Positions 34,513 to 54,016 are shown, counted from the first letter of the stretch. The stretch is DNA of 64,000 bases from Oscillospiraceae bacterium (GCA_015064895.1 SVRI01000012.1:1146-65145); one strand, 5' to 3'. Made by a program: numbers and translations. The notes: generated from the letters alone by a model not told the origin.

Positions 34513-34531
34513 TTAAATAACTGAGTTTTTT

Positions 34532-34561
34532 GTCCGCATCGAAAGATGCGGACGTTTTTTT
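34532..34561 (+). terminator. intrinsic terminator
   Basis: GTCCGCATCgaaaGATGCGGAC followed by GTTTTTTT. Confidence 0.8.
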
Positions 34562-34569
34562 GTTTTAGC

Positions 34570-34598
34570 TTTACAAAATGATTACTGAGTGATATAAT
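34570..34598 (+). promoter_or_regulatory. sigma-A promoter with extended -10
   Basis: TTTACA, 17-nt spacer ending in TGa, then TATAAT. It is 21 nt upstream of the ATG at 34620. Confidence 0.55.
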
Positions 34599-34619
34599 GA
34601 AAAAAAGAAAGGGGATATA

Positions 34620-37600: not shown

Positions 37601-37850
37601 TTCACCGGCACCGCATCTTACATGCTGTGTTCAGGAAAATGCCGAGGTTTATAATAACTGTGCAATTGAAACAGCCTCATATATAAACGGAACGGAGACT
37701 GTTTATTCAGAGGATGATTATTCGCCGGAAACTGTTGTTGCAAAGATGAATCAGGGCAGGGTAAAGGCGAGTATGATGGCAGGTGTACCTGTTTCGTCAC
37801 TTAATGAGTGGAATGCTGATGGAAACGGAAAGCTTGATTTTGTAAAATAA
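34620..37850 (+). CDS. lipoprotein C (1076 aa): alkaline phosphatase domain fused to two GLUG-type beta-helix modules and a Big_2 domain
   Basis: Lipobox-like LTMASC. PhoA-type catalytic set: LIPDGAGYG, TDSAAAGTA (Ser nucleophile), EGSKVDTGGH (E-x4-D-x3-H), APDHDTGG and GSHT. GLUG-type module openers are DDPFIIDEAWDFIEFT...YFLQVSDIDL...FAGMYNGNGKTI and ARPYLINNEQDFLAFT...YRQTKDLDM...FNGIYDGKGYTI. Big_2 segment is VVVTPSSATVNRGDGLQLSAVV. Confidence 0.85.
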   Translation: MMKKIVALMLALLTALTMASCKKEEKKPQAPAPVADEVKEEQVEQKVEIKNIIFLIPDGAGYGSFDFANDVKAEGGFNSQKYPNKTYTSFSAMSMKKYLAGSIMTLNCNGDITDSAAAGTALSSGYKTINQYVGVDKTGKPRATILEAAQTKGMATGLVATYEWMHATPAAFSSHVINRNDYKNIYEQIENQNIDVVLGSGYGAVSSYATIDNAVENGYTVVTTREDLESVKPGDRIWGNCTNNSSPYDINLTAEQPTLAQMTKAAITALSDDEDGFFLMVEGSKVDTGGHANDAVVVASEYLAFDAAFKVAVDFAKKRNDTVVIAAPDHDTGGLKYSEIEDIMSVVNEVRSGTDSDVIKWESGSHTAQNVGVWIYVPEGTPFIEGLNSTVGDTPETRENYVVENSTLSPYLASLLGVNLDEVSKELFVDVTDIGRYSSDSGKFSFNNGNKYVYRNSDEYYKDGEKISTNGKVAVEVAGRFYVPSEMIDEDDWNYLSEEGSSEMGGSGTADDPFIIDEAWDFIEFTERVAGGETYEGKYFLQVSDIDLTKRTDFKGAGAECQFAGMYNGNGKTISVDLVAENDECVFPEIAGTLINVHVDGKIKSENASGNAVTGGIARSVAASGEILNCSSDVEISGCNVYGIVGTNNGYVGMCYFGGTLEGTGDVFVISSNSDGGVIEKCYYSDSLSAYGQDGAEAVTTELAQTTVEILNGGRTALVAASGEDKMCLWRVSEEDGMPEMYMPAPRVTDVVVTPSSATVNRGDGLQLSAVVQGEYGPSQQVIWSLESSAGGSESVVYEDGYLYVDVNESAQSLTVMAKSATDGSVTGICTVTVGETVLSEADGTRARPYLINNEQDFLAFTNEIISGDSKSGLYYRQTKDLDMSAVPEYNGIQSTHSFNGIYDGKGYTIKVAIESESDNSLFGSCRGMIMNVRTEGTVVGTANPAGICRAVRDNGIVVNCISDCDITGGTEASGIVRSNYHLVANTFFTGKLSSPAPHLTCCVQENAEVYNNCAIETASYINGTETVYSEDDYSPETVVAKMNQGRVKASMMAGVPVSSLNEWNADGNGKLDFVK

Positions 37851-37853
37851 ATA

Positions 37854-37886
37854 AAATCCCGCACGCTGAGGTGCGGGATTTTTTTG
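37854..37886 (+). terminator. intrinsic terminator
   Basis: AAATCCCGCACgctgagGTGCGGGATTT followed by a T-run. Confidence 0.8.
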
Positions 37887-37944
37887 TATAAATTTCAAGA
37901 GCATAAGAACCATAAAAGTGCTAAAAAAATATGAAAAATGGATA

Positions 37945-37973
37945 TTTACATATTGTGCAAATTGTGATACAAT
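37945..37973 (+). promoter_or_regulatory. sigma-A promoter with extended -10
   Basis: TTTACA, 17-nt spacer ending in TGa, then TACAAT. Same architecture as the promoter at 34570. Confidence 0.5.
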
Positions 37974-38029
37974 GATAGTAATTAAAATTGTGACTTTTTA
38001 ACAAAGTTCATAAAAAAGGAGAATGCTTT

Positions 38030-41000
38030 ATGAAAACCAGAGCTCTCAAAATAGTATCATTTCTTCTGGTAATCTGTATGATTTGCATGGGCATGCCCAT
38101 GACGGCTTTTGCGGTACCTTCTGCTGTAACTGTTGTTGAATCAGCACAGGAAGTGACGGCAAACGATTCCGAAGAAATTGCTACCGGAGAAGCTGCGGCA
38201 GAGACGACACCGCAGATCAAAAACATTATTTACCTCATTCCCGACGGTGCCGGATACGGTTCTTTGGATTTTTCCAATGACGTAAAGCAGGCAGGCGGTT
38301 TTGATGATGCGAAATTCCCCTATAAGACACCTGTAGACGATAGTCCCATGACACTTTTTGACTATCACGCAGGCTCTATGGTTACGCTCAATATTTATAA
38401 TGCCATGACAGACTCGGCTGCTGCCGGCACTGCTCTTTCGACGGGTTATAGGACAGTCAATAACTATCTCGGTCTTGACAGAAGAAAGATGCCCCATGCA
38501 AACCTTACTGAAGCTGCTCAGTCGGTAGGTAAGGCGACGGGTCTTGTTTCTACATATGAATGGCCTCATGCAACACCTGCTTCCTTTGCAGCTCATGCAA
38601 TTCAGAGAACAGACTATGCTGATTTCTACCGTCAGATTGAAAACAAGAATCTTCAGGTAGTTCTCGGTAATGGCTACGGCTCTGTTGCGGCCTACGGTGC
38701 TACAATGCAGACGGCTATTGATAACGGTTATACAATCGTTAAGACAAAGGCAGAGATGGCGGCTGTACAGCCCGGTGATAAAATCTGGGGTAATGTATGC
38801 GAAACAAGCTTTGACTTTGATATTTATAACGGTGCGGATACATCCACTCTTGCCGAAATGACACAGGCGGCGATCACCGCACTTTCCGGTGATGAAGACG
38901 GCTTCTTCCTTATGGTAGAAGGTTCAAAAGTTGATACAGGCGGACACTCCAACAACACAGCACAGATGTCCTCCGACTATATTGCATTTGATGAAGCTTT
39001 CAAGGTTGCGGTAGAATTTGCAAAGTCTAGAACTGATACGGTTGTAGTTGCAGTTCCCGACCACGATACAGGCGGTCTTTACTATGATACACTTGTTGCT
39101 TCCAGTAATCTTGCTACAGCAGTCGCCGAAACACAGCAGGGTAACAACTCTACTCTTGTTACTTGGGAATCCGGCTCTCATACAACACAGGAAGTTCCTT
39201 TCTGGTGCTACTATCCCGAAGGAATTACAGGTATTGAAGGTGCGGCAGAACCCGGTCGTGACTACTATGTTGATGAAAACGGCAACAAGAACCCTGTAAG
39301 AACAGAAAACGTAATTGATAACACGGATATTGCTCCCTGGTGTGCTTCTTTAATGGGCGTTGACCTTGATGAGCTTACAAATAACCTTTTCGTAAATGTT
39401 ACCGATATCGGTCTTTACGATGCGGCAACACAGAAGTTCACCTTTAATAACGGCGATAAGTACGCATATAAGGATCAGGCTGTTTACTATGAAAACGGCG
39501 TAAAGAAAGATATGTTCGGTCAGATGATTGTTATTGAGGAAACAGTTTATGTTCCCCGTGAAATCATCGACGAAGAAGACTGGAACTATGTAACGGAAGA
39601 CTTTGACGGCGTTACGGGTGCAGGTACTGAATCCGACCCATATGTTATCGACGATGCTTGGGACTTTATGGAGTTTACCAATAATGTTGTCGCCGGTGAC
39701 AGCTATGAAGGCAAGTATATCATTCAGGGTGCCGATATTGACCTTTCCAATAAGAACACATACACAGGTATGGGTACAGCTACCTTCAAGGGTAACTATG
39801 ACGGTAGAGGTTATACATTGAATGTTGCAATTTCCGCAACAGGAAGTAATGCCGCAACAGTCTTTGGCGTAAATGAAGGAAGAATTATGAATGTCGGTAT
39901 AACCGGTTCTCTCAGCGCTGAAAATGCACACGCTGCATCTTTTGTTTACAGAAACGGCTACGGAACAATACTTAACTGTTATTCCCTTGCCAATGTTACA
40001 ACTTCCGGCGACGGATATTCTAATGGTCTTATTTTCCAGAACTATGCTTCCATAAATAACTGCTATTTCGGCGGTACTGCAAAGACTGCCTCCACAAGCT
40101 GTAACAGTGAGGGCGAGTTCCTTAATGTATACTATGTTGAAACAGCAGGTTCTCAGATAAATAACGGCACAGGCGTTTCGGCAGAGGTTGCAAAGACAAC
40201 ACTTGCAGATACACTTAATTCCAAGCTTGATGAGCTTATTTCCACCTACGGTCTCGGTGAAGATGCTCTTAATAAGTGGACATATATTGGCGGTATTGAC
40301 TATCCTGTTCTCAAGGTAAAGACACCTGAAGTAACGGGTATTACGGTAACTCCAACAGCGGCAACCGTAAAACGCGGCGAATCCACAACACTCAAACCTA
40401 CCGTTCTCGGTATCTACAATCCTCCGCAGGATGTTGTATGGAATGTAAGCCCCGCAGCCACAAGTAAGGAGACAAAGTTCTATGAAGACGGCTTCTTCAA
40501 GATTGGTGCTGATGAAACTGTTTCTCAGTTCACAATTCAGGTTAAGGCTGCATACGGCGGTGCATATACAGCAACTGCTGTTGTAACTGTTGACCTTGCA
40601 TCTGACCCCGTAGTTAAGGAAGACGGTTCAAGAACTCATCCTTACCTTATTGAAACAGAAGAAGACTTTATCGAATTTACAGAAAATGTAAACAGCGGTA
40701 ACCAGTACAGTAATAAATACTTAAAGCAGACAAGAGACCTTGACCTTGACGGCTATGACGAATATAAGGGCAGATACACAGAAACCTACTTTACAGGTAT
40801 TTACGACGGAGACGGTCATACAATCAATGTAAATATTTATGTTGAACGTGATGAAGATAAGCAGTATGATGATATTTGTCTCTTTGGTTATATTTCAAGT
40901 GCAAGAATTTTGAATCTTGGTGTAACAGGTTCAATCAAGGCACCGGGTTACGTTTCAACATTTGCAAGAAATATGTCTTCGGCTTCACTTATTGCAAACT

Positions 41001-42463
41001 GCTGGAGTACAGTTCATGTAGAATCAATAGCCAAGGGCTTCGGCACACATCCCGGTAACGATGCTTCCGGCTTTGTACGTTCACCCTACGGCGGTGCATT
41101 TGTAAACAGCTACTTTGCAGGTGAGCTTATTTCTCCCGGCGGAACATCTCATCCTCTCGGCGGTTCGGGTTCGGATTATAAGGCAGTTTACTATAACTGT
41201 GCATATCTCGGACAGGTTTCTTTTGATGATGAAGAACAGGCGGAAATTACAGAAGAAGAACTCGAAGGTCTTGCATATAAGTTCAATGCAGGCATAGCAG
41301 AGTCGGCAAAGGTTGCAACAAGCTCCAACTCCAAGGGTTATGTTTATGTTCCTGCAATGTTCCGTGAATGGTTCGATGAAATCGGCGGTCCAAGACACGG
41401 TGCAAGAGATGATGCGGCACGTTTCAATAAAGAATTCAGCGGGGATAAATCCTTTGAAGAAGTTGTAATCGGTTCTGATGTTGAAATCAAGGCAAACGGC
41501 AATGTGATTTCAATCGACAGCCTTACTGTTAAGGAAGACTCGGCTCTCCACCTTGGACAGGGTACATATGTACTCGGAGATGTTACAGGTACAGTAACAG
41601 CATCTCCAAATGCAAACGTACTTGTTACAGGCGCAAATAAGCCCGAGGGGTATGTTGAACTTGATATCGGTACAGCTTCAGGTTCAAGATATGCCGAGGT
41701 TAACGGCTATCAGTACGATATCGTTGAAAACAGCGGTAAGTACGGTGTGATTACCGACAAGAATATGCTTATTCAGGTTGTTGAAAAGCCTGAGGCTTCA
41801 CTCTTTGCCGAAGAAGAATATGAAACAACAGGTACAAAGTACTATTATGTTGATGCTGAAAACGGCACATCCACTGAGCTTACATCACTTGATGGCTATA
41901 TGGCAAACTACAACAAGTATTCTATAAGAATGCCCGACCAAAGATTGAGTAATACGGCACTTCGTTTCAGAGCTCAGATTTCAAAGACATCAAAAGATGA
42001 AACTGACGAGTATGTAATTGATGAATACGGTTATATTATTACTCTTGAAGAAAAGCTCAGTAATAACGACTATTCACAGCTCAACTTTGACTTTACAATT
42101 CCCGGTAAGACAGCATACGTATACGGTGCTGCATATGTAAAGGGAAGCGTAGATAAAGTGTATGGACAAGATGATGAAGTAGCTGAGTTTGCAGCTGCAT
42201 TCCATGGTATTCCTACATTGGCATACGGTAAGAGAATTGTCGCAAAGACATATACAAAGGTAACTGTAAACGGCGAACAGTTTGTACTTTACGGTGAACC
42301 TATGGTAACAAGTGCTTATTCTGTTGCCAAGGAACTCGTAGACAGCGGCTCTGTTTCCGAAAGCGATGAAACTTATGGCTGCATCAAAGATATTATTGAT
42401 GCAACTACAGATGAAGGCTTCGGTAATGAAGCGGGCGGCGATACAGGAGACCTTTGGAACTGA
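38030..42463 (+). CDS. giant secreted mosaic protein D (1477 aa): alkaline phosphatase, two GLUG-type modules, Big_2, and the C-terminal modules shared with A and B
   Basis: RBS AAAGGAG. Signal peptide ending MTAFA. Phosphatase motifs LIPDGAGYG, TDSAAAGTA, EGSKVDTGGH, VPDHDTGG and GSHT. GLUG-type openers SDPYVIDDAWDFMEFT... and THPYLIETEEDFIEFT.... The C-terminal roughly 330 aa is collinear with the tails of A and B. Confidence 0.85.
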   Translation: MKTRALKIVSFLLVICMICMGMPMTAFAVPSAVTVVESAQEVTANDSEEIATGEAAAETTPQIKNIIYLIPDGAGYGSLDFSNDVKQAGGFDDAKFPYKTPVDDSPMTLFDYHAGSMVTLNIYNAMTDSAAAGTALSTGYRTVNNYLGLDRRKMPHANLTEAAQSVGKATGLVSTYEWPHATPASFAAHAIQRTDYADFYRQIENKNLQVVLGNGYGSVAAYGATMQTAIDNGYTIVKTKAEMAAVQPGDKIWGNVCETSFDFDIYNGADTSTLAEMTQAAITALSGDEDGFFLMVEGSKVDTGGHSNNTAQMSSDYIAFDEAFKVAVEFAKSRTDTVVVAVPDHDTGGLYYDTLVASSNLATAVAETQQGNNSTLVTWESGSHTTQEVPFWCYYPEGITGIEGAAEPGRDYYVDENGNKNPVRTENVIDNTDIAPWCASLMGVDLDELTNNLFVNVTDIGLYDAATQKFTFNNGDKYAYKDQAVYYENGVKKDMFGQMIVIEETVYVPREIIDEEDWNYVTEDFDGVTGAGTESDPYVIDDAWDFMEFTNNVVAGDSYEGKYIIQGADIDLSNKNTYTGMGTATFKGNYDGRGYTLNVAISATGSNAATVFGVNEGRIMNVGITGSLSAENAHAASFVYRNGYGTILNCYSLANVTTSGDGYSNGLIFQNYASINNCYFGGTAKTASTSCNSEGEFLNVYYVETAGSQINNGTGVSAEVAKTTLADTLNSKLDELISTYGLGEDALNKWTYIGGIDYPVLKVKTPEVTGITVTPTAATVKRGESTTLKPTVLGIYNPPQDVVWNVSPAATSKETKFYEDGFFKIGADETVSQFTIQVKAAYGGAYTATAVVTVDLASDPVVKEDGSRTHPYLIETEEDFIEFTENVNSGNQYSNKYLKQTRDLDLDGYDEYKGRYTETYFTGIYDGDGHTINVNIYVERDEDKQYDDICLFGYISSARILNLGVTGSIKAPGYVSTFARNMSSASLIANCWSTVHVESIAKGFGTHPGNDASGFVRSPYGGAFVNSYFAGELISPGGTSHPLGGSGSDYKAVYYNCAYLGQVSFDDEEQAEITEEELEGLAYKFNAGIAESAKVATSSNSKGYVYVPAMFREWFDEIGGPRHGARDDAARFNKEFSGDKSFEEVVIGSDVEIKANGNVISIDSLTVKEDSALHLGQGTYVLGDVTGTVTASPNANVLVTGANKPEGYVELDIGTASGSRYAEVNGYQYDIVENSGKYGVITDKNMLIQVVEKPEASLFAEEEYETTGTKYYYVDAENGTSTELTSLDGYMANYNKYSIRMPDQRLSNTALRFRAQISKTSKDETDEYVIDEYGYIITLEEKLSNNDYSQLNFDFTIPGKTAYVYGAAYVKGSVDKVYGQDDEVAEFAAAFHGIPTLAYGKRIVAKTYTKVTVNGEQFVLYGEPMVTSAYSVAKELVDSGSVSESDETYGCIKDIIDATTDEGFGNEAGGDTGDLWN

Positions 42464-42483
42464 TATAGTCAGAATTAAAATTT

Positions 42484-42516
42484 TCCGCACTCACACGGTG
42501 GGTGCGGAGTTTTTTT
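42484..42516 (+). terminator. intrinsic terminator
   Basis: TCCGCAC...GTGCGGA stem followed by GTTTTTTT. Confidence 0.75.
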
Positions 42517-42547: not shown

Positions 42548-42576
42548 TTGCAAAATTCGTAGAAAGATGATATGAT
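42548..42576 (+). promoter_or_regulatory. sigma-A promoter with extended -10
   Basis: TTGCAA, 17-nt spacer ending in TGa, then TATGAT. It is 57 nt upstream of the ATG at 42634, which has an AAGGAG RBS. Confidence 0.5.
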
Positions 42577-42633
42577 AATTTTGTATACTTATGGATAATG
42601 GATAAAAATGCTGATTAAAGGAGAAAACAAGGG

Positions 42634-45600
42634 ATGAATAACGGTTTAAAGCCGTCAAAGGTAACAGTAAACATTGAAACAATGCCGTATTTTTCGGCAT
42701 CAATAGCGGATATGCGCATATCACCCGTAATAAGGTTGGTACTGGGCACGCCGGAGGCTGCAAAAAGCGGCAGACTTGAAATCAGTATAGTTGGTAAATG
42801 CAGGGATGTTGAATTTATACGCCGTGCAGATTTTGTCAAGGAAAATTTTAATACAGAGTCTTATAATTTAAAGAATACTCTTTCCTGTAATATCGATTTT
42901 GACTTTGACAGCTTTGAATATGACAATGCTTTTCTTAACAGCCTTGAAGAAGAAACAATGGCTGAAATCTATGTTCTCGTAAACTATTGCGGAACAGAAT
43001 ATGTTACCAAATCCCATATATCCCTTTTGCCTGCCGATACATGGCTCGGACTTGACGGTGAGCCCTCCGTTATTGCTTCTTTTGTAAAAGAAGATGAAAC
43101 TGTATGCGGCATATGTGACTCCTTGTGTGAAGATGAAAAAATCAGCTATAGCGTAAATTCCAAAAAGACCATAACAGCAGCAATCAAAGAGCTTTATAAA
43201 AGACTCAAAAATTGTAATATTATTTATACGCGTCCTGTCGGCTATGCTGCCAATGTCAAGCAGCAGATAAGAAGTGCAGATGTGATTTTCGGTGGCAGCA
43301 GCGTGCTTGCCACACCCCTTGAAATTGCAACCGTGTTTTCTTCATGCGCAAGAAAAATCGGTTTCGACACCTCACTTTTGTTTGTCAGAGGAAAAAAAGG
43401 TGAAATCTCGGTGCTTTGCGGCATTTACTTGGTAAAGAGCCCTGTAAATGTTCCTGTTTATGAAGATGCAGAAAGAATTAAGGCTATGCTTGACGCAGGT
43501 GACATGCTTGTTGTTGACCCGTCTGTTTTTGCTGCAGCACAGAACACGTCTCTTGTAATGGCGCTTGAACAGGCAGCAGAGTATTTTACAAAGAATCTCA
43601 GCAGCCTTGTATGCATGGTTGATATAGAATGTGCTAAAAGAAGCACCGGCGAAGCCGCTTATGACGAATTGGCATCACTTCCCGTAAAAAACGCCATGGC
43701 AAGAGTATACTCGTCTCTTGTGTCTGCACCCGTGATGCAGGTGCTTTCAGGTAAAAAGCGTGAAGAAATAGAAGAGATTCCGCTTTTGCTGGCTGATTTT
43801 GATTCGGTATTCAGAAACAATAATGACAGATTCAAACTTTTGCCGCTTGATTTTAATGTTGACCTTACCGATTTTGCGGCGATTGATAAAGATTTTTCTT
43901 CCATACTTACAATGTCATCACCCAAGGCGGGACAGCATTTCAGTCAAAATGAACTTGTAAGAATAAGAGAAAGATTTTCAAGACTCAAGGAAAAGATTAC
44001 CCGTGACGGTGAAATTACCACATCCTATTCCGAAGAGACGCTTTACAGATACGCGTCTGCCATGACCTTTGGCAAAAATAAAAGAGAACCTTATTTTGCC
44101 TTCGGATATGTAAAAATAACCGATAAGCTTACTGAAAGTGTAAGCTTTGCTCCTATTTGCCTTGTCAGGGCAAACCTTGAGTATGAAAACGGTAACTTCT
44201 ATGTAAATCAGATTGGTAACCCCATTGTCAATAAGGTGTTTATAAGAAATGCATTAAAGGATTCTGCACTTGGCTATGATTCCTTTATGAAATCTCTAAT
44301 GCCAACCGATAAAACAGAAATATTCGACATGTTTGAAAATATCCGTGTTGCACTTATGGAAACGGACGACAGACATGTTTATGAAATAGTAAGGGAAGCA
44401 CATATCGTAAATTTAGAAATTGATGACTATGTGCTCTGGTCAAATCTTGCACTTCTCAGAAAGAAGATGTCGGGCTCTGAAAATGTGTCCCGTGTGTTTG
44501 AGGATAAATTTGCTCAAGATGAGCAACTTGACCTTTCATATTCACCGTCAATGCCTTTGTATTCTCAGGCAATGAAGGCGGTAGTCAATGAAACAAGCAT
44601 GGTTGTTGAGGGTGCGTTTACTGCCGAAAAAGAAAATGTGCTTGTTGCACAGGCAGCAAAGAATATATTTGCGGGAAAGAGCACACTTGTTGTCACCGAT
44701 GACATGGAAATGTCGGAATATGTTTACGGCTTGCTTTGCGAAAAGAACTTTTCTGATGTTGCATTTGTGCTTGATGAAAGCGGAAAAGCGGAAGGTGCCG
44801 TAAAGAAAATTGCAGATAATATTGAAAAGTATAATAAGGAAGAAGATAACGGCATTGCTTTTGTAAATCCTGAGCTTTTGGAAGCAAATAAGGTTCTTCT
44901 TGATTATACAGACCGTATAAACAGAAAGCATAGCATGGGTATGTCGCTCAAGGAGGCGGAAATAGCATATCTTTCTGCAAGTGCAGGTACTGTTGAAAAC
45001 GATGATATTCCCATTGATAAAAAGATTTTCGAGTATGCCGATGAAAGCAAGCTTGATAACATATTCGAAAGGGTAGGAGAGCTTATAACAATAGCGGGAA
45101 ATCTCTGTAAAAAGAGTGGACTTCCCACACATACACCCCTTAAGAACCATCCTCTTTTCAATACAAATCCCCGTGATGATATTGATGAAGAAGTAAAGGC
45201 TCAAATCAGAACTGCAATAGAAAACACACTTCCCGTGCTTTCCGAATACAGAGATGTATTCCTTGATGTAAATGAAATACTCGGCTTTGATGAAAGAGAC
45301 CTTGATTCCTTCTATAAGCTGGAAAAACTCAATGATTTGTATAAACTGGTTCTCACTGCAAGAGATATTGACATACCCGAAAAGTTTGTTGAAAGCGATA
45401 TTGCAGATTTCTCAAAGAGTAAGCGTTTTGAAACAGAAAATAAAAAGCGTATGGAAGCAATCGAGTTTAAGCTCAATTTCTTCAGCCATGAAATTTTTGA
45501 AGATGTTGAAACACTTCTTCGAGGAGATGTTTATGACGAGGAAGAAGAAAAGGGCTTCCTCAAGAAGTTTATGCTTAAGAAAAACAGTCATGAAACGCTT

Positions 45601-47589
45601 ATGCAGTACGTTATCCCCGAAAGAAAATCGGATTTTCAGCAGCATAAGATTTCTGACATATATAAGCTTTTGTATGAATATAAATCCTGCGTTGTTGCAT
45701 TAAGACAAAGCGGAAACAATGTAAATGACGGTGAAGACAGCCTCAAGCTTGCAAAGGTATCCGAAAAGGCGGCATATATTGTCGGTGAAATAAGCTGTGC
45801 TTCAAGCGACAGAAAAAAACTTCTTTCCAATGTTTTCAGACTTATTTCGGTAATACCTGTAGACGCCGCTCTGGCAAGAAAGATAACGGTAGTAAGAGCA
45901 AGACTTGCTGAGCTTTATTCCGGAGAAAACAGCGTAACAAGCTTCCTGTCTGCTTCTATGGGTATAGATTTCAATAATCTTACCTTTGAAAACGGTATTC
46001 TCAGCTTTGACGGTATTGGAAAGTACCTTGAAGAAATCGAAAAGAAACTTGAACTTACCGAACTTTGGCTCATGTGGCTTAAAAAGGCAAATGAGGCAAG
46101 AGATTTTGTTCCTGGTTTTGTAAAATATCTTGAAGAATACGGTGCAGGCAAGAATGTTGACAGAATATTTGCCAAGAGCCTTCTTTCTCCCGTTGCGGAA
46201 TGTGTCAGAAACGCAAGCTTTGACGGTTTTTCGACAGAAAAACTCGGAAAGGCAAAGGATAAATATATTTCTCTTCTTAAGAAGGCATGTGAAACGTCAT
46301 ATAATAATACCTTTGAGGCTTATAAGAAGTCTGTAAAGCATATGGCTGAAACCAATGTGGTAAAGGCTGAGGATTTTGCCAATGTTTCCTTCAAGGATTT
46401 GATGTCCGGTAATGCAGGACTTGTTCAGAAGGTTCTTCCTGTTGTTATAGTTACAAAGAATGTGCTTTCTGAGGTTATGCCCTTTGAAGCAAAGTTCGAT
46501 ACTGTATGTATAATTGACAATAAGGATAACGGCTTTTCAATGCTCCCATCCCTTGCTTACGGTACAAAGGGTGTTGTCTTTAATATGTCAAGAACCGAAA
46601 GAAGCAGCCTTTGCGAAAGATTTGCAAAGCATGTGCCTTGCTATGATGTTTGTACTATTACCGATAATAAAGATGCCTGCCTTTTTGCATGGCTCAATGA
46701 ACTTGTTTTTGACAGTGACTGCATGGCCCCGGGCTTTAATGAAAAGAGCAATGTAGAGCTTGTTAGGATGAATGGCTCGTATGAACGGACAATCGGAAGG
46801 ACAAATAAGACCGAGGCTGAACTTGCTATAGTCAAGGCAACGGGTCTTTTGCAGGATGAAACAAAGAATGTTGTTATTACTGCATTTACAAAGGAACAGT
46901 GCACATCAATTGAAAAGCTTGTTTATATACTCAGTAAAAAGAACAAAATTCTTGATAAGGCAAGAGGCGAAGGCAGAGTATCGGTATGTACGCCTGACAG
47001 ACTCTATATGAAAAAGTATAATTGCCTTGTTGTATGTACATGCTTTGGTGCCGATAAGGACGGAAGAATCGGCTGGGATTTCGGTTACGGCTCTGTAAAC
47101 GGAAATCAAACAATTCCCGAAGCATATATAAGCATTGCTGACAGACTTACTGAAAAGACATATATTCTTTCAAGCCTTAATGTCAAGGATGCAAGATTCA
47201 TGAGACGTACAGGCAATAATACATCTGTGTTCAACAGCTTTTGTGAAATACTTGCCGACGGAAGGATTCCTCTGTGCATTGACCGTACAGAGCAAGTTAA
47301 AGAAGACAGCATTCTTTGCGATATTATTGCATGTATCGAACCCGGCAAATCCAGAGGCATGCTGTGTGAAGGCAAACACCCGATGAAGTTTGCACTTCGC
47401 GGTATACAGGATAATGATTTGTACATTCTTTGTGATAATGACATGGGTGTTTGTATGCATGACGAATTACTTATCAAGGAATACCTTGAAAGTGAAGGTA
47501 AGACGGTTACAACTCTTACACCAATGTCACTTGTAGGAGAAAAACTCTCTGAAACAATAAAGAGTCTTGTAGCCAAAACCGATAAATAA
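42634..47589 (+). CDS. 1651-aa cytoplasmic DUF4011 / SF1 (Upf1-DNA2-like) helicase-like protein with degenerate ATPase motifs
   Basis: No signal peptide. DUF4011-like core YFAFGYVKITDKL...FAPICLVRANLEYENGNFYVNQIGNPIVNKVF. The helicase layout is conserved but motif I reads PLYSQAMKAV...VVEGAFTAEKE (expected GPPGTGK[ST]). Motif II reads FDTVCIIDNKDN (expected DEASQ). Motif V-like is VVITAFTKEQ...VSVCTPDRLYMKKYNCLVVCT. The tail is nuclease-fold-like (LYILCDND...). Confidence 0.75.
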   Translation: MNNGLKPSKVTVNIETMPYFSASIADMRISPVIRLVLGTPEAAKSGRLEISIVGKCRDVEFIRRADFVKENFNTESYNLKNTLSCNIDFDFDSFEYDNAFLNSLEEETMAEIYVLVNYCGTEYVTKSHISLLPADTWLGLDGEPSVIASFVKEDETVCGICDSLCEDEKISYSVNSKKTITAAIKELYKRLKNCNIIYTRPVGYAANVKQQIRSADVIFGGSSVLATPLEIATVFSSCARKIGFDTSLLFVRGKKGEISVLCGIYLVKSPVNVPVYEDAERIKAMLDAGDMLVVDPSVFAAAQNTSLVMALEQAAEYFTKNLSSLVCMVDIECAKRSTGEAAYDELASLPVKNAMARVYSSLVSAPVMQVLSGKKREEIEEIPLLLADFDSVFRNNNDRFKLLPLDFNVDLTDFAAIDKDFSSILTMSSPKAGQHFSQNELVRIRERFSRLKEKITRDGEITTSYSEETLYRYASAMTFGKNKREPYFAFGYVKITDKLTESVSFAPICLVRANLEYENGNFYVNQIGNPIVNKVFIRNALKDSALGYDSFMKSLMPTDKTEIFDMFENIRVALMETDDRHVYEIVREAHIVNLEIDDYVLWSNLALLRKKMSGSENVSRVFEDKFAQDEQLDLSYSPSMPLYSQAMKAVVNETSMVVEGAFTAEKENVLVAQAAKNIFAGKSTLVVTDDMEMSEYVYGLLCEKNFSDVAFVLDESGKAEGAVKKIADNIEKYNKEEDNGIAFVNPELLEANKVLLDYTDRINRKHSMGMSLKEAEIAYLSASAGTVENDDIPIDKKIFEYADESKLDNIFERVGELITIAGNLCKKSGLPTHTPLKNHPLFNTNPRDDIDEEVKAQIRTAIENTLPVLSEYRDVFLDVNEILGFDERDLDSFYKLEKLNDLYKLVLTARDIDIPEKFVESDIADFSKSKRFETENKKRMEAIEFKLNFFSHEIFEDVETLLRGDVYDEEEEKGFLKKFMLKKNSHETLMQYVIPERKSDFQQHKISDIYKLLYEYKSCVVALRQSGNNVNDGEDSLKLAKVSEKAAYIVGEISCASSDRKKLLSNVFRLISVIPVDAALARKITVVRARLAELYSGENSVTSFLSASMGIDFNNLTFENGILSFDGIGKYLEEIEKKLELTELWLMWLKKANEARDFVPGFVKYLEEYGAGKNVDRIFAKSLLSPVAECVRNASFDGFSTEKLGKAKDKYISLLKKACETSYNNTFEAYKKSVKHMAETNVVKAEDFANVSFKDLMSGNAGLVQKVLPVVIVTKNVLSEVMPFEAKFDTVCIIDNKDNGFSMLPSLAYGTKGVVFNMSRTERSSLCERFAKHVPCYDVCTITDNKDACLFAWLNELVFDSDCMAPGFNEKSNVELVRMNGSYERTIGRTNKTEAELAIVKATGLLQDETKNVVITAFTKEQCTSIEKLVYILSKKNKILDKARGEGRVSVCTPDRLYMKKYNCLVVCTCFGADKDGRIGWDFGYGSVNGNQTIPEAYISIADRLTEKTYILSSLNVKDARFMRRTGNNTSVFNSFCEILADGRIPLCIDRTEQVKEDSILCDIIACIEPGKSRGMLCEGKHPMKFALRGIQDNDLYILCDNDMGVCMHDELLIKEYLESEGKTVTTLTPMSLVGEKLSETIKSLVAKTDK

Positions 47590-47609
47590 CAGTGGGAGGA
47601 AATGGCGTT

Positions 47610-48632
47610 ATGCCGACATTTTCCAAAAATTATATAGGTATAGATTTGGGTACTGCAAACACACTTGTGTGTACACCCGAAAAAGGCATAATTATAAGAG
47701 AACCGTCATATGTGGCATATGATATACGAACCGAGGAAATAATAGCTATTGGCAGCGGGGCAAAAAACCTTGTTGGCAAGACCCCTAATAATATATCGGT
47801 TGTCAGACCTCTTCGTGACGGGGTTATATCCGATTTTGAGCTTACCCTTGCCATGCTCAGCTATTTTGTGCGTCAGGCAATGAATAAGCTTTTGTTTGCA
47901 CGGCCCAAGGTTGTTGTGTGTATTCCTTACGGTGTATCTCAGGTTGAACACAGTGCACTCGAAAATGCACTTTTTGAAGTGGGCGTATCGAGTGTTGCAC
48001 TTGTTGAAGAACCGGTTGCTGCAGCAATCGGAGCAGGCCTTGCTTTTAAAAATCCGGTAGGAAATATGATTGTTGATATTGGCGGGGGTACAACCGAGGT
48101 TGCGGTGGTAACAGCGGGTGGAGTTGCCGTGTCGAAATCTCTGAGAGTTGCAGGGGATGAACTCAATGAAGCAATCGTTGAGTATATCAGAAAGAAATTC
48201 AATGTGGTTGTCGGTGAGATAACTGCTGAGGATATAAAAAAAGAAATAGGCTCTGCACATAAGAGCTCAGATGTGGGAATGCTTGAGGTAAGAGGCAGAA
48301 ATCTTATAACGGGACTTCCGTCGGTATTCAATATATATTCGTCTGAAATCAGAGTTGCAATGAAGCCGGTGCTTAACCAGATTGTAGAGGTTATCAAATC
48401 AACACTTGAGATAACACCTCCCGAACTTTGTGCAGATATACATACAGGTGGCATTACAATCTCGGGCGGAGGAGCACTTCTTTCGGGTATGAGTACCCTC
48501 ATAAGTGAAAACACTAAACTGGAGGTTTATATTGCAAGACGGCCTCTTGACTGTGTTATTGACGGTATTCATAAAATTATGACAAAGGAAGGCTATGAGT
48601 CTGTTTTGTCGGTTGCAAATCATAAAAAGTGA
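47610..48632 (+). CDS. mreB: MreB/Mbl-family actin-like protein
   Basis: IGIDLGTANTLV, RPLRDGVISDF, EEPVAAAIGAGL, IVDIGGGTTEVAV and ISGGGALLSGM are all present. The ATG at 47610 lies 9 nt after GGGAGGA and 20 nt after the stop of the upstream 1651-aa gene. No mreC or mreD in the window. Confidence 0.9.
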   Translation: MPTFSKNYIGIDLGTANTLVCTPEKGIIIREPSYVAYDIRTEEIIAIGSGAKNLVGKTPNNISVVRPLRDGVISDFELTLAMLSYFVRQAMNKLLFARPKVVVCIPYGVSQVEHSALENALFEVGVSSVALVEEPVAAAIGAGLAFKNPVGNMIVDIGGGTTEVAVVTAGGVAVSKSLRVAGDELNEAIVEYIRKKFNVVVGEITAEDIKKEIGSAHKSSDVGMLEVRGRNLITGLPSVFNIYSSEIRVAMKPVLNQIVEVIKSTLEITPPELCADIHTGGITISGGGALLSGMSTLISENTKLEVYIARRPLDCVIDGIHKIMTKEGYESVLSVANHKK

Positions 48633-48669
48633 TTAATAATAATTTATATAAAATGCGAGGTAAAAGGAA

Positions 48670-50331
48670 ATGAAAGAAACACTTACATCACTTACATTCA
48701 AAAACGGTGATAATGAAGCAAAAAAGAGACCCGTTTTCTGTATCGTAATGGACGGTATCGGTCTTGGCAAGGATAATATATCCAATGCAATTAAAAATTC
48801 AAGAACACCTACTCTTGATATGCTTATGTCAAAGTACCCCACACTTAAGCTCAAGGCTCACGGTACAGCGGTAGGTCTTCCTTCCGATGATGACATGGGA
48901 AACAGTGAAGTCGGTCATAACGCAATCGGTGCCGGTCAGGTTTTTGCACAGGGCGCAAAGCTTGTTTCAAACTCTATTGAATCAGGACTTATGTTTAATT
49001 CAAATTCCTGGAAGGAAATCGCTTCCGTTAAAGATACAGGTAAGACACTTCACTTTATCGGTCTTTTCTCTGACGGTAATGTTCACTCTCATATCGATCA
49101 CCTTAAGGCAATGCTCAGTCAGGCTAAGGTTGAAGGTATCAAGAATGTAAGAGTTCATATCCTCATCGACGGCAGAGATGTTGGCGAAACATCAGCTCTT
49201 GAATATATCAATCCCTTTGAAGAATTCCTTGCATCTCTTAACGGCGACGGCTTCGAAGCTAAAATTGCATCCGGCGGCGGCAGAATGAATATTACAATGG
49301 ACAGATACGAAGCTGACTGGTCCATGGTAGAACGCGGCTGGAAGACACACGTACTCGGTGAAGGCAGACAGTTCTCGTCTGCAAAGGAAGCTGTTGAAAC
49401 TTATAGAAGCGAACTCGGCTGTATCGACCAGGATCTTCCTCCTTTTGTTATTGCTGAAAACGGTACACCCGTCGGCACAATTGAAGACGGCGACAGCGTA
49501 GTATTCTATAACTTCAGAGGCGACAGAGCTATTGAAATTTCCAAGGCATTTGACGATAAGGACTTCGACAAGTTCGACAGAGTCAGAGTTCCTGCTGTTA
49601 CCTATGCAGGCATGCTCGAATATGACGGCGACCTTCACATTCCTTCAAGATACCTCGTATCTCCTCCCGAAATCAAGGGTACAATGGGTGAATACCTTGC
49701 AAATACAGGCGTTACACAGTATGCCCTCAGTGAAACACAGAAGTTCGGTCATGTAACATACTTCTGGAACGGTAACAAGAGCGGTAAGTTTGATGAAAAT
49801 ACAGAAACTTACGAAGAAATTAAGTCTGACGTAATTCCCTTCGAACAGAGACCCTGGATGAAGTGTGCTGAAATTACAGACAGACTTATTGAAGTAGCAA
49901 ATGAGGGCAAGTACAGATTTATGCGTGTAAACTTCCCCAACGGCGACATGGTCGGTCATACAGGTAACTACCTTGCAACAGTTGTTTCTGTTGAAGCACT
50001 CGACCTTCAGCTTGCAAGAATTTTGGAGGTTGTAGATAAGCTCGGCGGTGTAGCACTCATTACAGCCGACCACGGTAACGCAGATGAAATGTGCGAAATT
50101 GATAAGAAGACAGGAGAACCCAAGCTTGATAAAGAGGGCAATATGAAGTCCAAGACAAGCCATACATTAAATCCCGTTCCCTGTATTATCTACGATAATA
50201 AGTTTGCCGATAACTATAAGGTTATCGAAAAAGATACCTACGGTCTTTCCAATATCGCAGCAACTCTTGTTAATCTTATGGGTTACAAGGCTCCCGAAAT
50301 TTGGGATGAAAGTATGATTGAAGTCCTCTAA
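48670..50331 (+). CDS. gpmI: 2,3-bisphosphoglycerate-independent phosphoglycerate mutase
   Basis: [22 protein letters not shown] (catalytic Ser), TADHGNAD and other iPGM metal-site motifs. 553 aa. Confidence 0.9.
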
Positions 50332-50352
50332 TTTATATAAAGGATGTGTAGT

Positions 50353-52026
50353 ATGAAAAACATTATTAAGTTTTTTGCAGTTTCAATATTATTGTTTTCT
50401 CTTTCTGTAGTGGCTTTGGCTCTTCCGAGTGCCGTTGTTACTACAGACACGGCAGAAGAAATTGTTGCAAATGAAGGTTTTAACGCAAATCTTTCTGCAG
50501 ACGGAACAGAGCAGTCGCCCTATGTAATTAGTTCGGCAATTGATTTTAACAATTTTGCAGGACTAATTAAAAGCAATAATGCCGTATACGGGACGAAGTA
50601 TTATAAACTGACAAATAATATTGACTTCAAGGGCTACAGCCTTATACCTTTCGGAACAATGAACAGCCCCTTCAAGGGAACTCTTGACGGTAACGGATTT
50701 GCCTTGTTGAATACCCCCATTGCCGACACTGAGTATTCGGGTGTTATAGGTTATATTACTCAGGGTGCTGTTAAAAATCTTCGTGTATCCTATGCTGACA
50801 CACAGAATCTCTCTAAGTTTTCAAAGCTTAAGTATTTTGGCGGTATAGTCGGTTACGGTAAGGTTGCATCTTCAAAGACAGTTGATATTATCGGCTGTGA
50901 AACCGAGGGAAATATATCTGTTAATACTTCGCAGGCTGCTTACTTTGGCGGCATTGTGGGTTATTTGAAATGTGAAAGCGGAAACGGCTATATAAATGAC
51001 TGTGTTTCCAATATGCCTCTGAACATTACGGCAGACGGAAACGGATATGTTGGAGGTTTTGGCGGATATCTGTATTCCGGCTCAAATAAAGACTGCTATG
51101 TGACAAACTGTGTCAGCTTTGGTGATGTGTTTTTTGAGACAACGCTGAACGAAGCGACTGTTGGCGGTTTTGCGGCATATACCAATAAAGACGAGCCTGG
51201 TTGGTCAGGTTGGGCTGGAGAGGATGCTGAGCTTGCGGCATCATACAGCAATTTCCAGAATTGTGTTTCAATAGGCAGCGTCAGCGGTAAAGCCAAAAAC
51301 GAGGCAGATGGCGGCGGATTTATCGGATATGCGGATGGCGATGGAACTCTGAGTGTTGTCGGCTGCTATAATAATAACGATTGTTCTGTCAGTCTTCAGG
51401 CAACGTCTGTCAATAATACAGAGATCGGAGAAGTAAAAACAACCGAAAAAGAAAACCTTCTCAAAAAAGAGTTTTATCAAAATCTTTCTTTTGACTTTGA
51501 TAACAGCTGGTACTTTTCCTCGTCGGGACTTGGACTCAGAGGTGTGGCAAAGTCCCACGGTGCAGGTGAAACCCATAGCGAAAAGGACGTAAGACTTAAT
51601 TCCAACCCTGGTCTTCGTTTCCGTGCAACAATTGAAGTTTTAAAGCGTGACTACTGCTTCGAATACGGTTTTATTATTGCAAAGAAAGACGAGCTTGGTA
51701 CACAGGAACTGACTTTTGATTATACAGGTAGAAAAGTTTCCGGTGTTGCTTTTGACAGTACAACAGATAAGTTTGTTGACAAGGATGACACAACCCTTGT
51801 TATTTCGGGTGTTGTCACTAATATTCCCGAGGAACACTATGACGAAGTGCTTGTTGCACGTACATACGTTAAATTTATAAGCGGCGGCGAAACTGTAATT
51901 GTTTACAGCGATCCGCAGACCTCAAGTATCAATCTTTCGGCACAGACCGTAAGAGACAGCGAAAGCTATGAATATCTTACCGATGAGCAGAAGGAAATAC
52001 TTGAATCAATGCTTCCCGAAGCATAA
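50353..52026 (+). CDS. secreted GLUG-motif protein E (557 aa) with the shared C-terminal module
   Basis: Signal peptide ending VVALA, then the LPSAVVTTDTAEE motif. Module opener QSPYVISSAIDFNNFA...YYKLTNNIDF...FKGTLDGNGFAL. Repeated GG[IF][VGA]GY GLUG motifs. The tail GLRFRATIE...EYGFIIAKK...ARTYVKF...VYSDP is homologous to the tails of A, B and D. It starts 21 nt after the gpmI stop. Confidence 0.85.
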   Translation: MKNIIKFFAVSILLFSLSVVALALPSAVVTTDTAEEIVANEGFNANLSADGTEQSPYVISSAIDFNNFAGLIKSNNAVYGTKYYKLTNNIDFKGYSLIPFGTMNSPFKGTLDGNGFALLNTPIADTEYSGVIGYITQGAVKNLRVSYADTQNLSKFSKLKYFGGIVGYGKVASSKTVDIIGCETEGNISVNTSQAAYFGGIVGYLKCESGNGYINDCVSNMPLNITADGNGYVGGFGGYLYSGSNKDCYVTNCVSFGDVFFETTLNEATVGGFAAYTNKDEPGWSGWAGEDAELAASYSNFQNCVSIGSVSGKAKNEADGGGFIGYADGDGTLSVVGCYNNNDCSVSLQATSVNNTEIGEVKTTEKENLLKKEFYQNLSFDFDNSWYFSSSGLGLRGVAKSHGAGETHSEKDVRLNSNPGLRFRATIEVLKRDYCFEYGFIIAKKDELGTQELTFDYTGRKVSGVAFDSTTDKFVDKDDTTLVISGVVTNIPEEHYDEVLVARTYVKFISGGETVIVYSDPQTSSINLSAQTVRDSESYEYLTDEQKEILESMLPEA

Positions 52027-52037
52027 AGGGCATAATC

Positions 52038-52070
52038 AAAACTCCCGCAGATTTCTGCGGGAGTTTTTTG
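52038..52070 (+). terminator. intrinsic terminator
   Basis: AAACTCCCGCAGatttCTGCGGGAGTTT followed by TTTG. It is the first clear terminator after 42516. Confidence 0.8.
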
Positions 52071-52193
52071 TTGTAAAAGGAAGGGCAGTTTACATGCTTT
52101 TTTTTGCGGTTTACTAAACTCTACACACATTCGGTTTACATTTTTTCCATTGTATGTTATACTAAACATGAAAACAACAAAAGGAGAATGCAT

Positions 52194-52598
52194 ATGGCAG
52201 CTAAACAGACAAATAAAACGATGGGTGAAATGATAAGCTTTCTTCGTAAGGAAAAAGGTATGACGCAAAAAGAAATTGCTGATAAGTTATTTATAACTGA
52301 CAAAGCGGTTTCAAAATGGGAAAGGGATATATCATGCCCAGATACTGCTATAATGCCAAAACTTTGTGAGATACTCGGAGTTTCTGCTGAAGTGCTTTTG
52401 AGTTGCAAGTCTTCTCAGATTGAAAAGTGTTTTCAGAAATATTTTGTATTTAAAACCATACTCAAAGCAATTGCATTTTCCTTTGGAATTGTGACAGCAA
52501 TTTTTGGGTTGCTGGGATTGATTCCTGAAAATGTTGGTTTTGCTTTTTTAGGTATAGGACTTGCCTGTATAGGTTTGCTTCTTTTGTTAATGGATTGA
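52194..52598 (+). CDS. membrane-tethered XRE-family HTH regulator
   Basis: HTH_3 pattern MISFLRKEKGMTQKEIADKLFITDKAVSKWERDISCPD, followed by two hydrophobic helices. The ATG at 52194 lies 7 nt after AAGGAG. Confidence 0.8.
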   Translation: MAAKQTNKTMGEMISFLRKEKGMTQKEIADKLFITDKAVSKWERDISCPDTAIMPKLCEILGVSAEVLLSCKSSQIEKCFQKYFVFKTILKAIAFSFGIVTAIFGLLGLIPENVGFAFLGIGLACIGLLLLLMD

Positions 52599-52621
52599 TG
52601 TTTCAGGAAGGGCGTGCTACT

Positions 52622-54016
52622 ATGAGAAAGCGGTTTTGTTATATTACGTTTGCAGTTGTTCTTGTTTTGTTTCTGTTCAGTGCCTGTAAATCGGATGTTG
52701 AAAATGAAAATTCAGATGATTTGAAAATTGATATAGACAACACAAATGAAGAATCGATTAGTTTGGAAATTGATGTGGATAATAACGATGAAAACGCAGA
52801 AGATGTTTACAAAACCAACACAGTTAATAGCTCGGAATTTGTTTTTTCTAAAGATGAAAATACAAGAATAATAACAATTAATTTTTCGGAAGAAATTTTC
52901 GATGACACATATGATTTTGCTCCCATTGTTTCGCAATCTGAATTTGAATATGGTGAATATGTCCCTTTTGTAAGATATGCAGAAGGGGATGGTTATGCAG
53001 AAGCTGGAAGTGCGGGTTCAATGCCTTTTTATTCATATGCTTTTTTGACTGAGGACACTGAGAGCCTGAATGACGGCAAAGAGATACATAAGAAATTAAA
53101 TTCTGAGTTCCTTGTGCAAAACAACCTTTCAGAAGAAGACTTGCCTTGTGTACACCCATTCTTTTTTTCTGAAAACGACAAGGACAGAGCATTGGAATTT
53201 TACAATAACAGTCGTGTGATATATGTTTCGGAAGATGCAAAGACAGTAGGGAATTTTATGTTGATTCCAAATGAAAACAAAGAAGAATCTGTTCTTATTC
53301 CGTTTTCACATTATAAATATCAAATCTACCGCGATGGAAAAAATGTTGAAACTCTAATTAAAGAGACGGGCGAATATTATGAAAGTTATATGGATGGCGG
53401 GATACTGTCAGGTGATAACTGGGGAACACGGTATTCTTATGTTTCGGAAGATTCTCCCGCATACAAAGTAGAAGTGCCATATGCAGAAAGAATTTTTGTG
53501 AATAACAACAGTAATGCGGTTATGTTTGCGGATAGTGAGCATTTTAATGGTGGAAAACTGTATATTTGTTCTCCCGACGAAAAACGTATGGTTTATGAAA
53601 TCACAATGCCTACGATGGCTGGCAGCGTAGCAGAAGGTCATTATAAGGTTGAGCAATTGATTGATTCACGATTCTTACTAATAAGTTTAATGCGCGAATT
53701 TCCGGTCAATGGGCGTCCGCATAAAGCAAATTATCTTTCGATTTTATACGATCTTGAAAACGGAACGTATGAGATTTTGGAAGACTGTGTTTCAAATCCC
53801 GTAATTTCGCCTGATGGTAAGTATATGGCATTTATAAGAACAATTGCTAACAAAGAGGGCTTTGGATATTCCACTTTGGGATTCTTTATAAAAAACCTTG
53901 AGACCCAAAAATATTTATATTACGATTATGCAAATACCTATGGGGCAGACTATCTGAAATGCGGTATAGTAGGCTGGGTGTCGGAAGAAGGGCTTTTTAA
54001 ATTGATTGGAGAGTAA
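52622..54016 (+). CDS. hypothetical lipoprotein with a PD40/TolB-like repeat near the C-terminus
   Basis: Signal plus lipobox LFLFSAC, an acidic N-terminal linker, and NPVISPDGKYMAFIR (PD40-like). Confidence 0.6.
   Translation: MRKRFCYITFAVVLVLFLFSACKSDVENENSDDLKIDIDNTNEESISLEIDVDNNDENAEDVYKTNTVNSSEFVFSKDENTRIITINFSEEIFDDTYDFAPIVSQSEFEYGEYVPFVRYAEGDGYAEAGSAGSMPFYSYAFLTEDTESLNDGKEIHKKLNSEFLVQNNLSEEDLPCVHPFFFSENDKDRALEFYNNSRVIYVSEDAKTVGNFMLIPNENKEESVLIPFSHYKYQIYRDGKNVETLIKETGEYYESYMDGGILSGDNWGTRYSYVSEDSPAYKVEVPYAERIFVNNNSNAVMFADSEHFNGGKLYICSPDEKRMVYEITMPTMAGSVAEGHYKVEQLIDSRFLLISLMREFPVNGRPHKANYLSILYDLENGTYEILEDCVSNPVISPDGKYMAFIRTIANKEGFGYSTLGFFIKNLETQKYLYYDYANTYGADYLKCGIVGWVSEEGLFKLIGE

Follow-up and report, generated by a model that had tools for sequence, protein, structure and literature searches.

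An apparently inactivated ProA/Hhe-like protein and MreB form a conserved gene pair in uncultured gut Clostridia

Introduction

To our knowledge, the known partners of the actin-fold protein MreB are membrane proteins of the cell-wall elongation machinery, and we know of no pseudo-helicase among them. An architecture that combines a transglutaminase, a superfamily 1 (SF1) helicase, a Vsr restriction endonuclease (REase) and a winged helix-turn-helix (wHTH) has been described (Anantharaman et al., 2013; PMC3710099), and NCBIfam holds models for the related anti-phage proteins ProA (NF058533) and Hhe (NF042953). Our literature search traced no publication on ProA as an anti-phage protein, and the name is therefore taken solely from the NCBIfam label. 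Here we describe a locus in which a relative of these proteins stands beside MreB. It lies in a stretch of 64,000 nucleotides (nt) from an Oscillospiraceae bacterium (GCA_015064895.1, SVRI01000012.1:1146-65145), hereafter the window, to which all coordinates refer, and consists of four plus-strand genes (42634-52026) encoding a 1651-amino-acid (aa) protein (hereafter the large protein), MreB, the phosphoglycerate mutase GpmI and a secreted protein. A sequence-only reading of the window had proposed these genes as an operon, in which a helicase-like protein without activity could be coupled to an actin-like filament and, possibly, to the export or anchoring of surface proteins. Neither the inactivated clade to which the large protein appears to belong nor its fixed pairing with MreB was found described in our literature searches.

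Results

Conservation of the gene pair

Besides deeper clades, 47 homologues of the large protein were recovered at 95-35% identity, all of them named 'hypothetical protein' in the database and all carried by metagenome-assembled genomes (MAGs) of uncultured gut Clostridia; the family has therefore escaped annotation, being rare and confined to these organisms. Contigs and species genomes of the homologues were fetched, and a metagenome scan added three loci; with the deeper clades, downstream DNA was available for L001-L016, L018-L022 and L024-L026 in addition to the window. In each of these related loci, about 23 in number and belonging to three deep clades, mreB lay directly downstream of the large gene, and among them no member of the inactivated family was seen without it. 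The homologues at 95-35% identity had the order large gene, mreB, gpmI wherever downstream DNA was available, their identity to the window proteins being 34-61% for the large protein, 70-85% for MreB and 81-98% for GpmI. A search started from the MreB side retrieved MreBs at 63-66% identity that lie between a 1,616-1,645-aa protein and a 553-aa cofactor-independent phosphoglycerate mutase (iPGM); the former, overlooked by the word-indexed search, is 25-28% identical to the large protein of the window. In clade C, where this identity is 21-26%, the large gene overlaps mreB by ATGA and contains an internal Shine-Dalgarno sequence, and tsaB and hpt follow mreB in place of gpmI and the gene of the secreted, GLUG-like protein. 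The gap between the large gene and mreB was 0-35 nt except in L019 (142 nt), and was left uncomputed in five deep-clade loci without a canonical mreB start.

The flanks of the pair were wholly different between clades, comprising ftsK/bacA, dnaB/tilS/ftsH, spoIIGA-sigE, dap genes or giant surface proteins. As a control, intact ProA genes in the loci examined occupied variable contexts of defence-island type (HigB, MC2/CTD6, AAA_14), with no MreB adjacent. The sequence-only reading had left it undecided whether the adjacency is functional or coincidental; its persistence in three deeply diverged clades, where the flanks differ and the two genes are closely spaced or overlap, argues for the former, and a functional linkage of the large protein with MreB is very probable. 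The same reading had included gpmI and the GLUG gene in the arrangement, which does not hold for clade C, with its tsaB and hpt, nor for the several gpmI-containing loci that have no GLUG gene. Judged from gene order, the invariant unit is the pair of the inactivated ProA-like protein (1,570-1,690 aa in the core set) and MreB.

In clade B (L018:1309-2974, L019:1179-2867) the genes immediately preceding the operon are spoIIGA (Peptidase_U4) and one for a sigE-like sigma factor, so that the operon occupies the position where sigG is usually found. This genomic context indicates spore-forming hosts and hints at a possible developmental setting.

Ancestry of the large protein

Searches of the large protein against Pfam, PADLOC and PDB sequences returned nothing significant, and its ancestry was revealed only by NCBIfam, fold search and profile-profile comparison. 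The NCBIfam ProA model matched in three stretches with 135.3 bits (E 1.6e-39), below its equivalog cut-off of 1500 bits, while hhalign aligned the family with true ProA over 1485 columns (probability 99.95, E 1e-37), collinearly from residue 25 to 1605 of the query and from 40 to 1702 of ProA, the latter end falling inside the MTES_1575 domain of ProA. Searched exhaustively with phmmer, 1.84 billion representative proteins yielded only 94 relatives, which fall into three groups: the family itself, a more distant set with lengths of about 1,570-1,750 aa, and a set of about 1,900-2,000 aa. Members of the longest group are true ProA, with 1942-2200 bits on the ProA model (P0190 1942, P0202 2200) and the Pfam domains DUF4011, AAA_11, AAA_12, REase_MTES_1575 and DUF3320; they also reach 830-890 bits on the Hhe model, which places the window protein in the same superfamily as Hhe. 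The Pfam DUF4011 model itself does not match the window protein even at E values up to 10, and matches one of 22 relatives (E 1.3e-3).

In the AlphaFold model of residues 640-1651 (pLDDT 84.9), Foldseek matched residues 640-1560 to UPF1, Aquarius, Dna2, SETX/Sen1 and IGHMBP2 (probability 1.00) and to ZNFX1, with E values of 1.5e-6 to 1e-4, nsp13 being also among the matches of this model. The model of residues 1-660 (pLDDT 81.8) has an immunoglobulin (Ig)-like sandwich followed by a transglutaminase/papain-like core, an assignment for which the fold searches gave weak but coherent support. The description of the large protein as an inactive, helicase-like and DUF4011-like polypeptide was therefore right as far as it went, being borne out by fold search, motifs and kinship with DUF4011 proteins, and was incomplete in that an ancestry of ProA/Hhe anti-phage type had been missed. 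From these comparisons the 1651-aa protein is a full-length and apparently inactivated derivative of an anti-phage helicase-nuclease of the ProA/Hhe/MTES_1575 type.

Loss of catalytic motifs

The GK[ST] and DE signatures, the arginines of motif VI, the Cys and His of the transglutaminase and the E-x-D..H/RDRDR nuclease residues, all present in ProA, were found in no member of the family, and the losses extend to every relative of about 1,600 aa. At the position of the transglutaminase Cys, true ProA has GTC and the family ATP or ASP (T227 in the window protein), and the GHA of ProA has no His counterpart. Walker A (GPPGTGKS in ProA) reads GAFTAEKE in the window protein and Walker B (FDEASQ) reads IIDNKDN, with K666 and D1295, respectively, as the sole residues invariant in the family, while motif VI with its arginine finger (NVAITRAR) has become SIA-DRLTE. 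Of the Vsr nuclease, which in true ProA has the signature ECDGxxYHS..RDRDR and a DUF3320 tail, the family retains D1601 as its only invariant residue, without RDR motif or DUF3320; H1609 is lost in the deeper clades. Sequence conservation was lowest in the former catalytic cores and highest in residues 861-1010, within a long helical insertion, where clades A and B share 44% identity as compared to 12-27% elsewhere. In these alignments conservation has shifted off the former active sites, and the large protein is by all indications a multi-domain pseudo-enzyme whose whole fold was kept while the catalytic motifs disappeared; that it is catalytically inert is, on this basis, highly probable.

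The possibility of an active C-terminal nuclease, raised by a D-x-D..H motif retained in clade A, was rejected, since clades B and C conserve neither the His nor the second Asp nor the RDR motif. Three distant relatives of about 1,630-1,750 aa (P0177, P0181 and P0183) retain partial P-loops (GPRGSGKM, GRRSSGKK and GKIGTGKK, respectively) and have neither the Cys/His nor Walker B nor the nuclease motif; these relatives may represent intermediates of inactivation.

MreB

The MreB of the pair is, as far as its sequence tells, bona fide and canonical. It scored 410 bits on PF06723 (MreB_Mbl), 417 on PRK13927 (cut-off 293) and 390 on TIGR00904 (cut-off 366), and 345 bits against Geobacillus MreB (7zpt) with DLGTANT, DIGGGTTE and GGGALL aligned, so that hidden Markov model (HMM) scores and aligned motifs confirm the complete set of actin-fold nucleotide-binding motifs claimed earlier. 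Its gene has a Shine-Dalgarno sequence, GGGAGG, 10 nt before the in-frame ATG. The absence of mreC and mreD beside it was also verified: no MreC or MreD domain was detected in window open reading frames of at least 150 aa, nor in any related locus examined.

In the deepest gpmI-containing clade (L001:14965-15000, L016:14912-14930, also L011 and L022) no canonical start codon (ATG, GTG or TTG) is present where the conserved N-terminus of MreB, ISFIGIDLGTANT, is encoded, and the sole plausible start is an ATT located 10 nt after GGAGAGG and 5 nt past the stop of the large gene. Gene callers consequently shorten this MreB to 308 aa and remove its first phosphate-binding motif.

Operon structure and transcription

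The coordinates of the four genes and their gaps of 20 nt (large gene/mreB), 37 nt (mreB/gpmI) and 21 nt (gpmI/secreted-protein gene) were as previously given, and the operon layout was upheld, with short gaps and strong terminators only at the two ends (Table 1). A consensus scan found no convincing terminator between them, the plus-strand sites being weak (3 GC pairs, poor T tails); the 13 candidates counted in total are near the shuffle expectation (8.8 +/- 2.8), which agrees with the earlier reading, in which no terminator hairpin was seen between the promoter at 42548 and the terminator at 52038. Hairpins equivalent to the upstream terminator precede the promoter in L003-L007, L015 and L021. 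Promoter-like hexamers are about as frequent as chance would predict (34 against 32.9 expected), and the match at 42548 is for this reason no evidence by itself; its support is conservation across loci. Upstream of the large gene, the TTG of the -35 and the TGnTAnnAT of the -10 are invariant in 17 aligned loci, clade C has the same layout, and all clades share TTGCAA or TTGAAA, followed after a spacer of 17 nt by TGnTAnnAT, and have a GTATA-containing element where the transcript begins. Taken together, these signals suggest that the region is one sigma-A-driven operon, insulated and conserved.

In all three clades (window 42570-42633; upstream regions of L003-L026) a TATAC/GTATA element resembling an inverted repeat overlaps both the -10 and the start of the transcript, and a direct repeat in the leader, ATGGATAATGGATAA, is common to the close relatives. 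These conserved noncoding elements around the -10 and in the leader may constitute an operator. A riboswitch or known leader family was considered and dismissed: an Rfam search of the leader gave no match, and the sub-threshold matches, located at the terminator, were attributed to chance. A sporulation-sigma promoter, prompted by the upstream spoIIGA-sigE of L018 and L019, was likewise rejected, the conserved promoter being sigma-A-like with an extended -10. Two pairs of sigma-70-like hexamers are found inside the 3' end of the large gene, at 46994-47022 (11 of 12 matches) and 47138-47166 (10 of 12).

Transcript data were scarce. Fragments of the locus were contained in only two metatranscriptome-like runs. 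A 223-nt contig with at least 99% identity spans 47445-47667, and hence the junction of the large gene and mreB, in a run whose RNA status is only guessed, and a metatranscriptome holds a 241-nt mreB fragment. The junctions mreB/gpmI and gpmI/secreted-protein gene were covered by none of the RNA runs searched, and gpmI coverage derived mostly from relatives at 90-95% identity.

Table 1. Predicted features of the operon and of the large protein in the window (aa, residues of the encoded protein).
Feature	Coordinates	Strand	Basis or remarks
Intrinsic terminator of the upstream surface-protein gene	42483..42509	+	12-bp stem, 7 GC pairs, then TTTTTTT; would insulate the operon
Sigma-A-type promoter	42548..42576	+	TTGCAA-17-TATGAT, extended -10 TG
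Conserved leader	42577..42633	+	TTGTATA element directly after the -10; direct repeat ATGGATAA; Shine-Dalgarno AAAGGAG
Large gene: predicted 1651-aa cytoplasmic pseudo-enzyme, ProA/Hhe/MTES_1575-like, catalytic motifs all lost	42634..47589	+	NCBIfam ProA partial match, hhalign, motif comparison
N-terminal Ig-like beta-sandwich, aa 10-135	42661..43038	+	AlphaFold2 (AF2) model m08a4191068e7; fold matches to transglutaminase sandwich and pilin/Ig domains
Transglutaminase/papain-like core, aa 136-335, without Cys and His; family-specific motif DPSVFAAAQNTS	43039..43638	+	Foldseek, TGM3, E 4e-4
DUF4011-equivalent region, aa 336-640	43639..44553	+	hhalign to the DUF4011-bearing part of ProA
First part of RecA1, aa 641-720, degenerate P-loop G660-AFTAE-K666-E	44554..44793	+	ProA has GPPGTGKS there
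All-helical insertion in RecA1, about 540 aa, aa 721-1260	44794..46413	+	AF2 model m9dd04797ff9a
Remaining RecA1 and RecA2, aa 1261-1560; Walker B reduced to D1295; motifs V and VI lost	46414..47313	+	Foldseek, alignments
Degenerate Vsr-type (REase_MTES_1575-like) C-terminal domain, without DUF3320/wHTH tail	47314..47586	+	hhalign reaches ProA residue 1702
mreB, 340 aa, intact nucleotide-binding motifs	47610..48632	+	Pfam, NCBIfam, alignment to Geobacillus MreB
gpmI, long-type cofactor-independent phosphoglycerate mutase, 553 aa	48670..50331	+	TIGR01307, 422 bits (cut-off 330)
Secreted GLUG-like protein, 557 aa, signal peptide	50353..52026	+	C-terminal module of the surface-protein family; alternative ATG at 50344
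Operon terminator	52038..52067	+	13-bp stem, 7 GC pairs, then T-run

Neighbouring genes

GpmI scored 612 bits against the Trypanosoma brucei iPGM (3nvl), with the catalytic serine motif intact, versus 323 bits against a Bacillus-type iPGM, and 355 on NF003897, under its cut-off of 862. It belongs to the long type of about 550 aa, nearest to trypanosomatid and plant enzymes, is far more conserved than MreB across the lineage and is separate from any gap-pgk-tpi-eno cluster in the window. A gpmI gene follows mreB in clades A and B only.

The last protein of the operon was confirmed to be secreted and to carry the leader motif A[LF]A[LIV]PSAV..T.E and the C-terminal module of the four giant proteins encoded upstream (E 5e-12), as had been noticed before; its GLUG label is weak, with a Pfam Glug match of 7.5 bits (E 8.7) and only a 'faint' match in the L004 homologue. 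GLUG-like homologues follow gpmI in eight clade-A loci and in L018-L020, and the gene is absent from L001/L011/L016/L022, L008, L010/L012 and all clade-C loci. According to this distribution, both the secreted GLUG protein and, in clades A and B, gpmI are apparently clade-specific passengers or accessory members of the transcript, outside the core.

The four giant secreted proteins (24067-42463; 1623, 1792, 1076 and 1477 aa) have a signal-peptide motif and the C-terminal module in common; Big_2 and Flg_new repeats occur in two of them and alkaline-phosphatase domains in two, and the number of homologues varies between related genomes. Giant surface proteins precede the operon only in close relatives (L004-L007, L013). 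Past the operon terminator, two genes at 52104-54016 form a unit of their own, with an extended -10 promoter at 52135-52163. They encode an XRE-family helix-turn-helix protein (164 aa), whose gene overlaps the next by 4 nt, and a protein of 473 aa whose N-terminus is lipoprotein-like and which matched no family. The window is otherwise ordinary chromosome, with pheST, trmK, rqcH, a Mur ligase gene and gdh.

Discussion

The results are best accommodated, in our opinion, by an exapted non-catalytic scaffold that works with MreB and is encoded with it in one operon having a two-gene core, a reading which we regard as reasonably probable. The large protein would be made together with MreB as a non-enzymatic scaffold or adaptor, probably in complex with it, and would serve either to position or regulate the filaments of MreB or to link them to a ligand. 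A candidate ligand is a nucleic acid, which the inert helicase cleft would hold, or else a peptide bound by the transglutaminase cleft, likewise inert; the candidate binding surfaces would be these fossil clefts and, above all, the conserved helical insertion. A physical interaction between the large protein and MreB is predicted from the gene arrangement with only slightly more confidence than its absence. More speculative, and for the moment tentative, is the wider proposal that exaptation, in an ancestor of one group of gut Clostridia, turned an anti-phage helicase-nuclease of ProA/Hhe type into an inert, stoichiometric partner of a dedicated MreB, which would make the pair a previously unknown two-protein cytoskeletal module, with filaments tethered for example to DNA, RNA or other cargo by way of the fossil clefts.

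Several observations weigh against the scaffold reading. All carriers are uncultured MAGs, and vertical inheritance within a single bacterial order inflates the apparent conservation of synteny. The hexamers at 46994 and 47138 mean that mreB may also have a transcript of its own, and in the deep L001 clade the gap between mreB and gpmI is about 200 nt and contains a promoter-like site. The RNA support amounts to the one short contig from a run guessed to be RNA. Finally, K666, D1289 and D1295 are invariant, and residual nucleotide binding is therefore possible.

The inheritance argument can be taken further, to the view that the adjacency is coincidental synteny, in which a housekeeping mreB, with or without gpmI, happens to stand beside a large lineage-specific gene and the order was kept by kinship alone. 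Both mreB and gpmI are ordinary housekeeping genes, the carriers are all Clostridia, and some long-range synteny does exist, since L001, L003 and the window have Mur ligase, Aminotran_5, CbiA and Flavin_Reduct in common farther out. However, the immediate flanks differ wholly between clades whereas the pair persists even where the large protein has only 21% identity, the third gene switches between gpmI and tsaB while the pair remains constant, the junctions are of 0-35 nt or overlap by ATGA, the conserved promoter sits upstream of the large gene, and no member of the inactivated family was seen without a downstream mreB. We therefore consider coincidence unlikely.

MreB is a known phage target, and pseudo-enzyme sensors are common in immunity. 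The module might still be an immune one, a chromosomally fixed defence locus whose inactivated ProA-like protein would function as sensor or guard, for instance of MreB, or in which MreB filaments would be the effector or platform. The nearest relatives of the large protein are indeed the anti-phage proteins ProA and Hhe, and it evolves much faster than MreB and GpmI, as expected under conflict. Nevertheless, no PADLOC model matched the large protein, MreB, GpmI or the GLUG protein (0 families at E up to 0.1), the context is core-genome and housekeeping rather than a defence island, inheritance appears vertical with a conserved sigma-A promoter, intact ProA was never beside MreB in the loci examined, and no effector domain is evident in a protein whose nuclease is degenerate and whose protease and ATPase appear dead. 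A persisting immune role is, in view of these features, quite improbable.

That all four genes are the unit, with MreB and the scaffold organizing the export or anchoring of GLUG and giant surface proteins and gpmI as a metabolic passenger, is very improbable: the GLUG gene is co-oriented with gpmI and follows it closely with no terminator between, its product shares leader and C-terminal module with the upstream giants, and homologues occupy the same place in many clade-A loci and in clade B, but it is missing from the loci listed above, the large protein has no sign of a membrane or secretion function, and the link with the 31-kb block of giant surface proteins, suggested by the sequence-only reading, is unsupported, as that block is restricted to close relatives.

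We thus return to the non-catalytic scaffold. If its interaction with MreB is real, the pair could represent a new type of MreB-associated module, built on a giant soluble partner. If the proposed derivation is true, it would offer a clear case of an immune enzyme turned into a structural protein, with the transglutaminase, ATPase and nuclease sites lost and the fold kept.

Comparison with known systems

Among described proteins, ProA (NF058533) has the same domain order as the large protein, i.e., a beta-sandwich and transglutaminase-like part, the DUF4011 region, a RecA1 interrupted by a long insertion of helices, then RecA2 and a Vsr-like domain, along about 1,500 collinear residues. With respect to ProA, however, the window protein is about 300 aa shorter, has neither the catalytic motifs nor the DUF3320/wHTH tail, remains at 135 bits against a cut-off of 1500, and is encoded in a core-genome operon with mreB, whereas intact ProA is found in defence-island-like contexts. 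Hhe (NF042953; PADLOC), a single-gene DUF4011 helicase-nuclease, is similarly a large single polypeptide with an SF1 helicase, and has a DUF4011 domain for which the large protein contains a candidate equivalent, but the window protein has no PADLOC/Hhe match, has lost the motifs and is linked to MreB. The predicted two-RecA core (residues 640-1560) is shared with the Upf1-like SF1B helicases (UPF1, Aquarius, SETX/Sen1, IGHMBP2, Dna2, ZNFX1), from which the window protein differs in its degenerate motifs I, II, V and VI, in the approximately 540 helical residues in RecA1, in being bacterial and in having no evident RNA-decay context. As in the mreBCD/RodZ, Mbl and MreBH systems, a genuine MreB is accompanied by a dedicated neighbour conserved alongside, and, as for Mbl and MreBH of Bacillus, mreC and mreD are not adjacent; the neighbour is nonetheless an apparent soluble pseudo-helicase of 1,650 aa, unlike the elongasome membrane proteins of mreBCD/RodZ. 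The superfamily and MreB were thus both already known, and what appears to be new is the inactivated clade and its fixed pairing with MreB.

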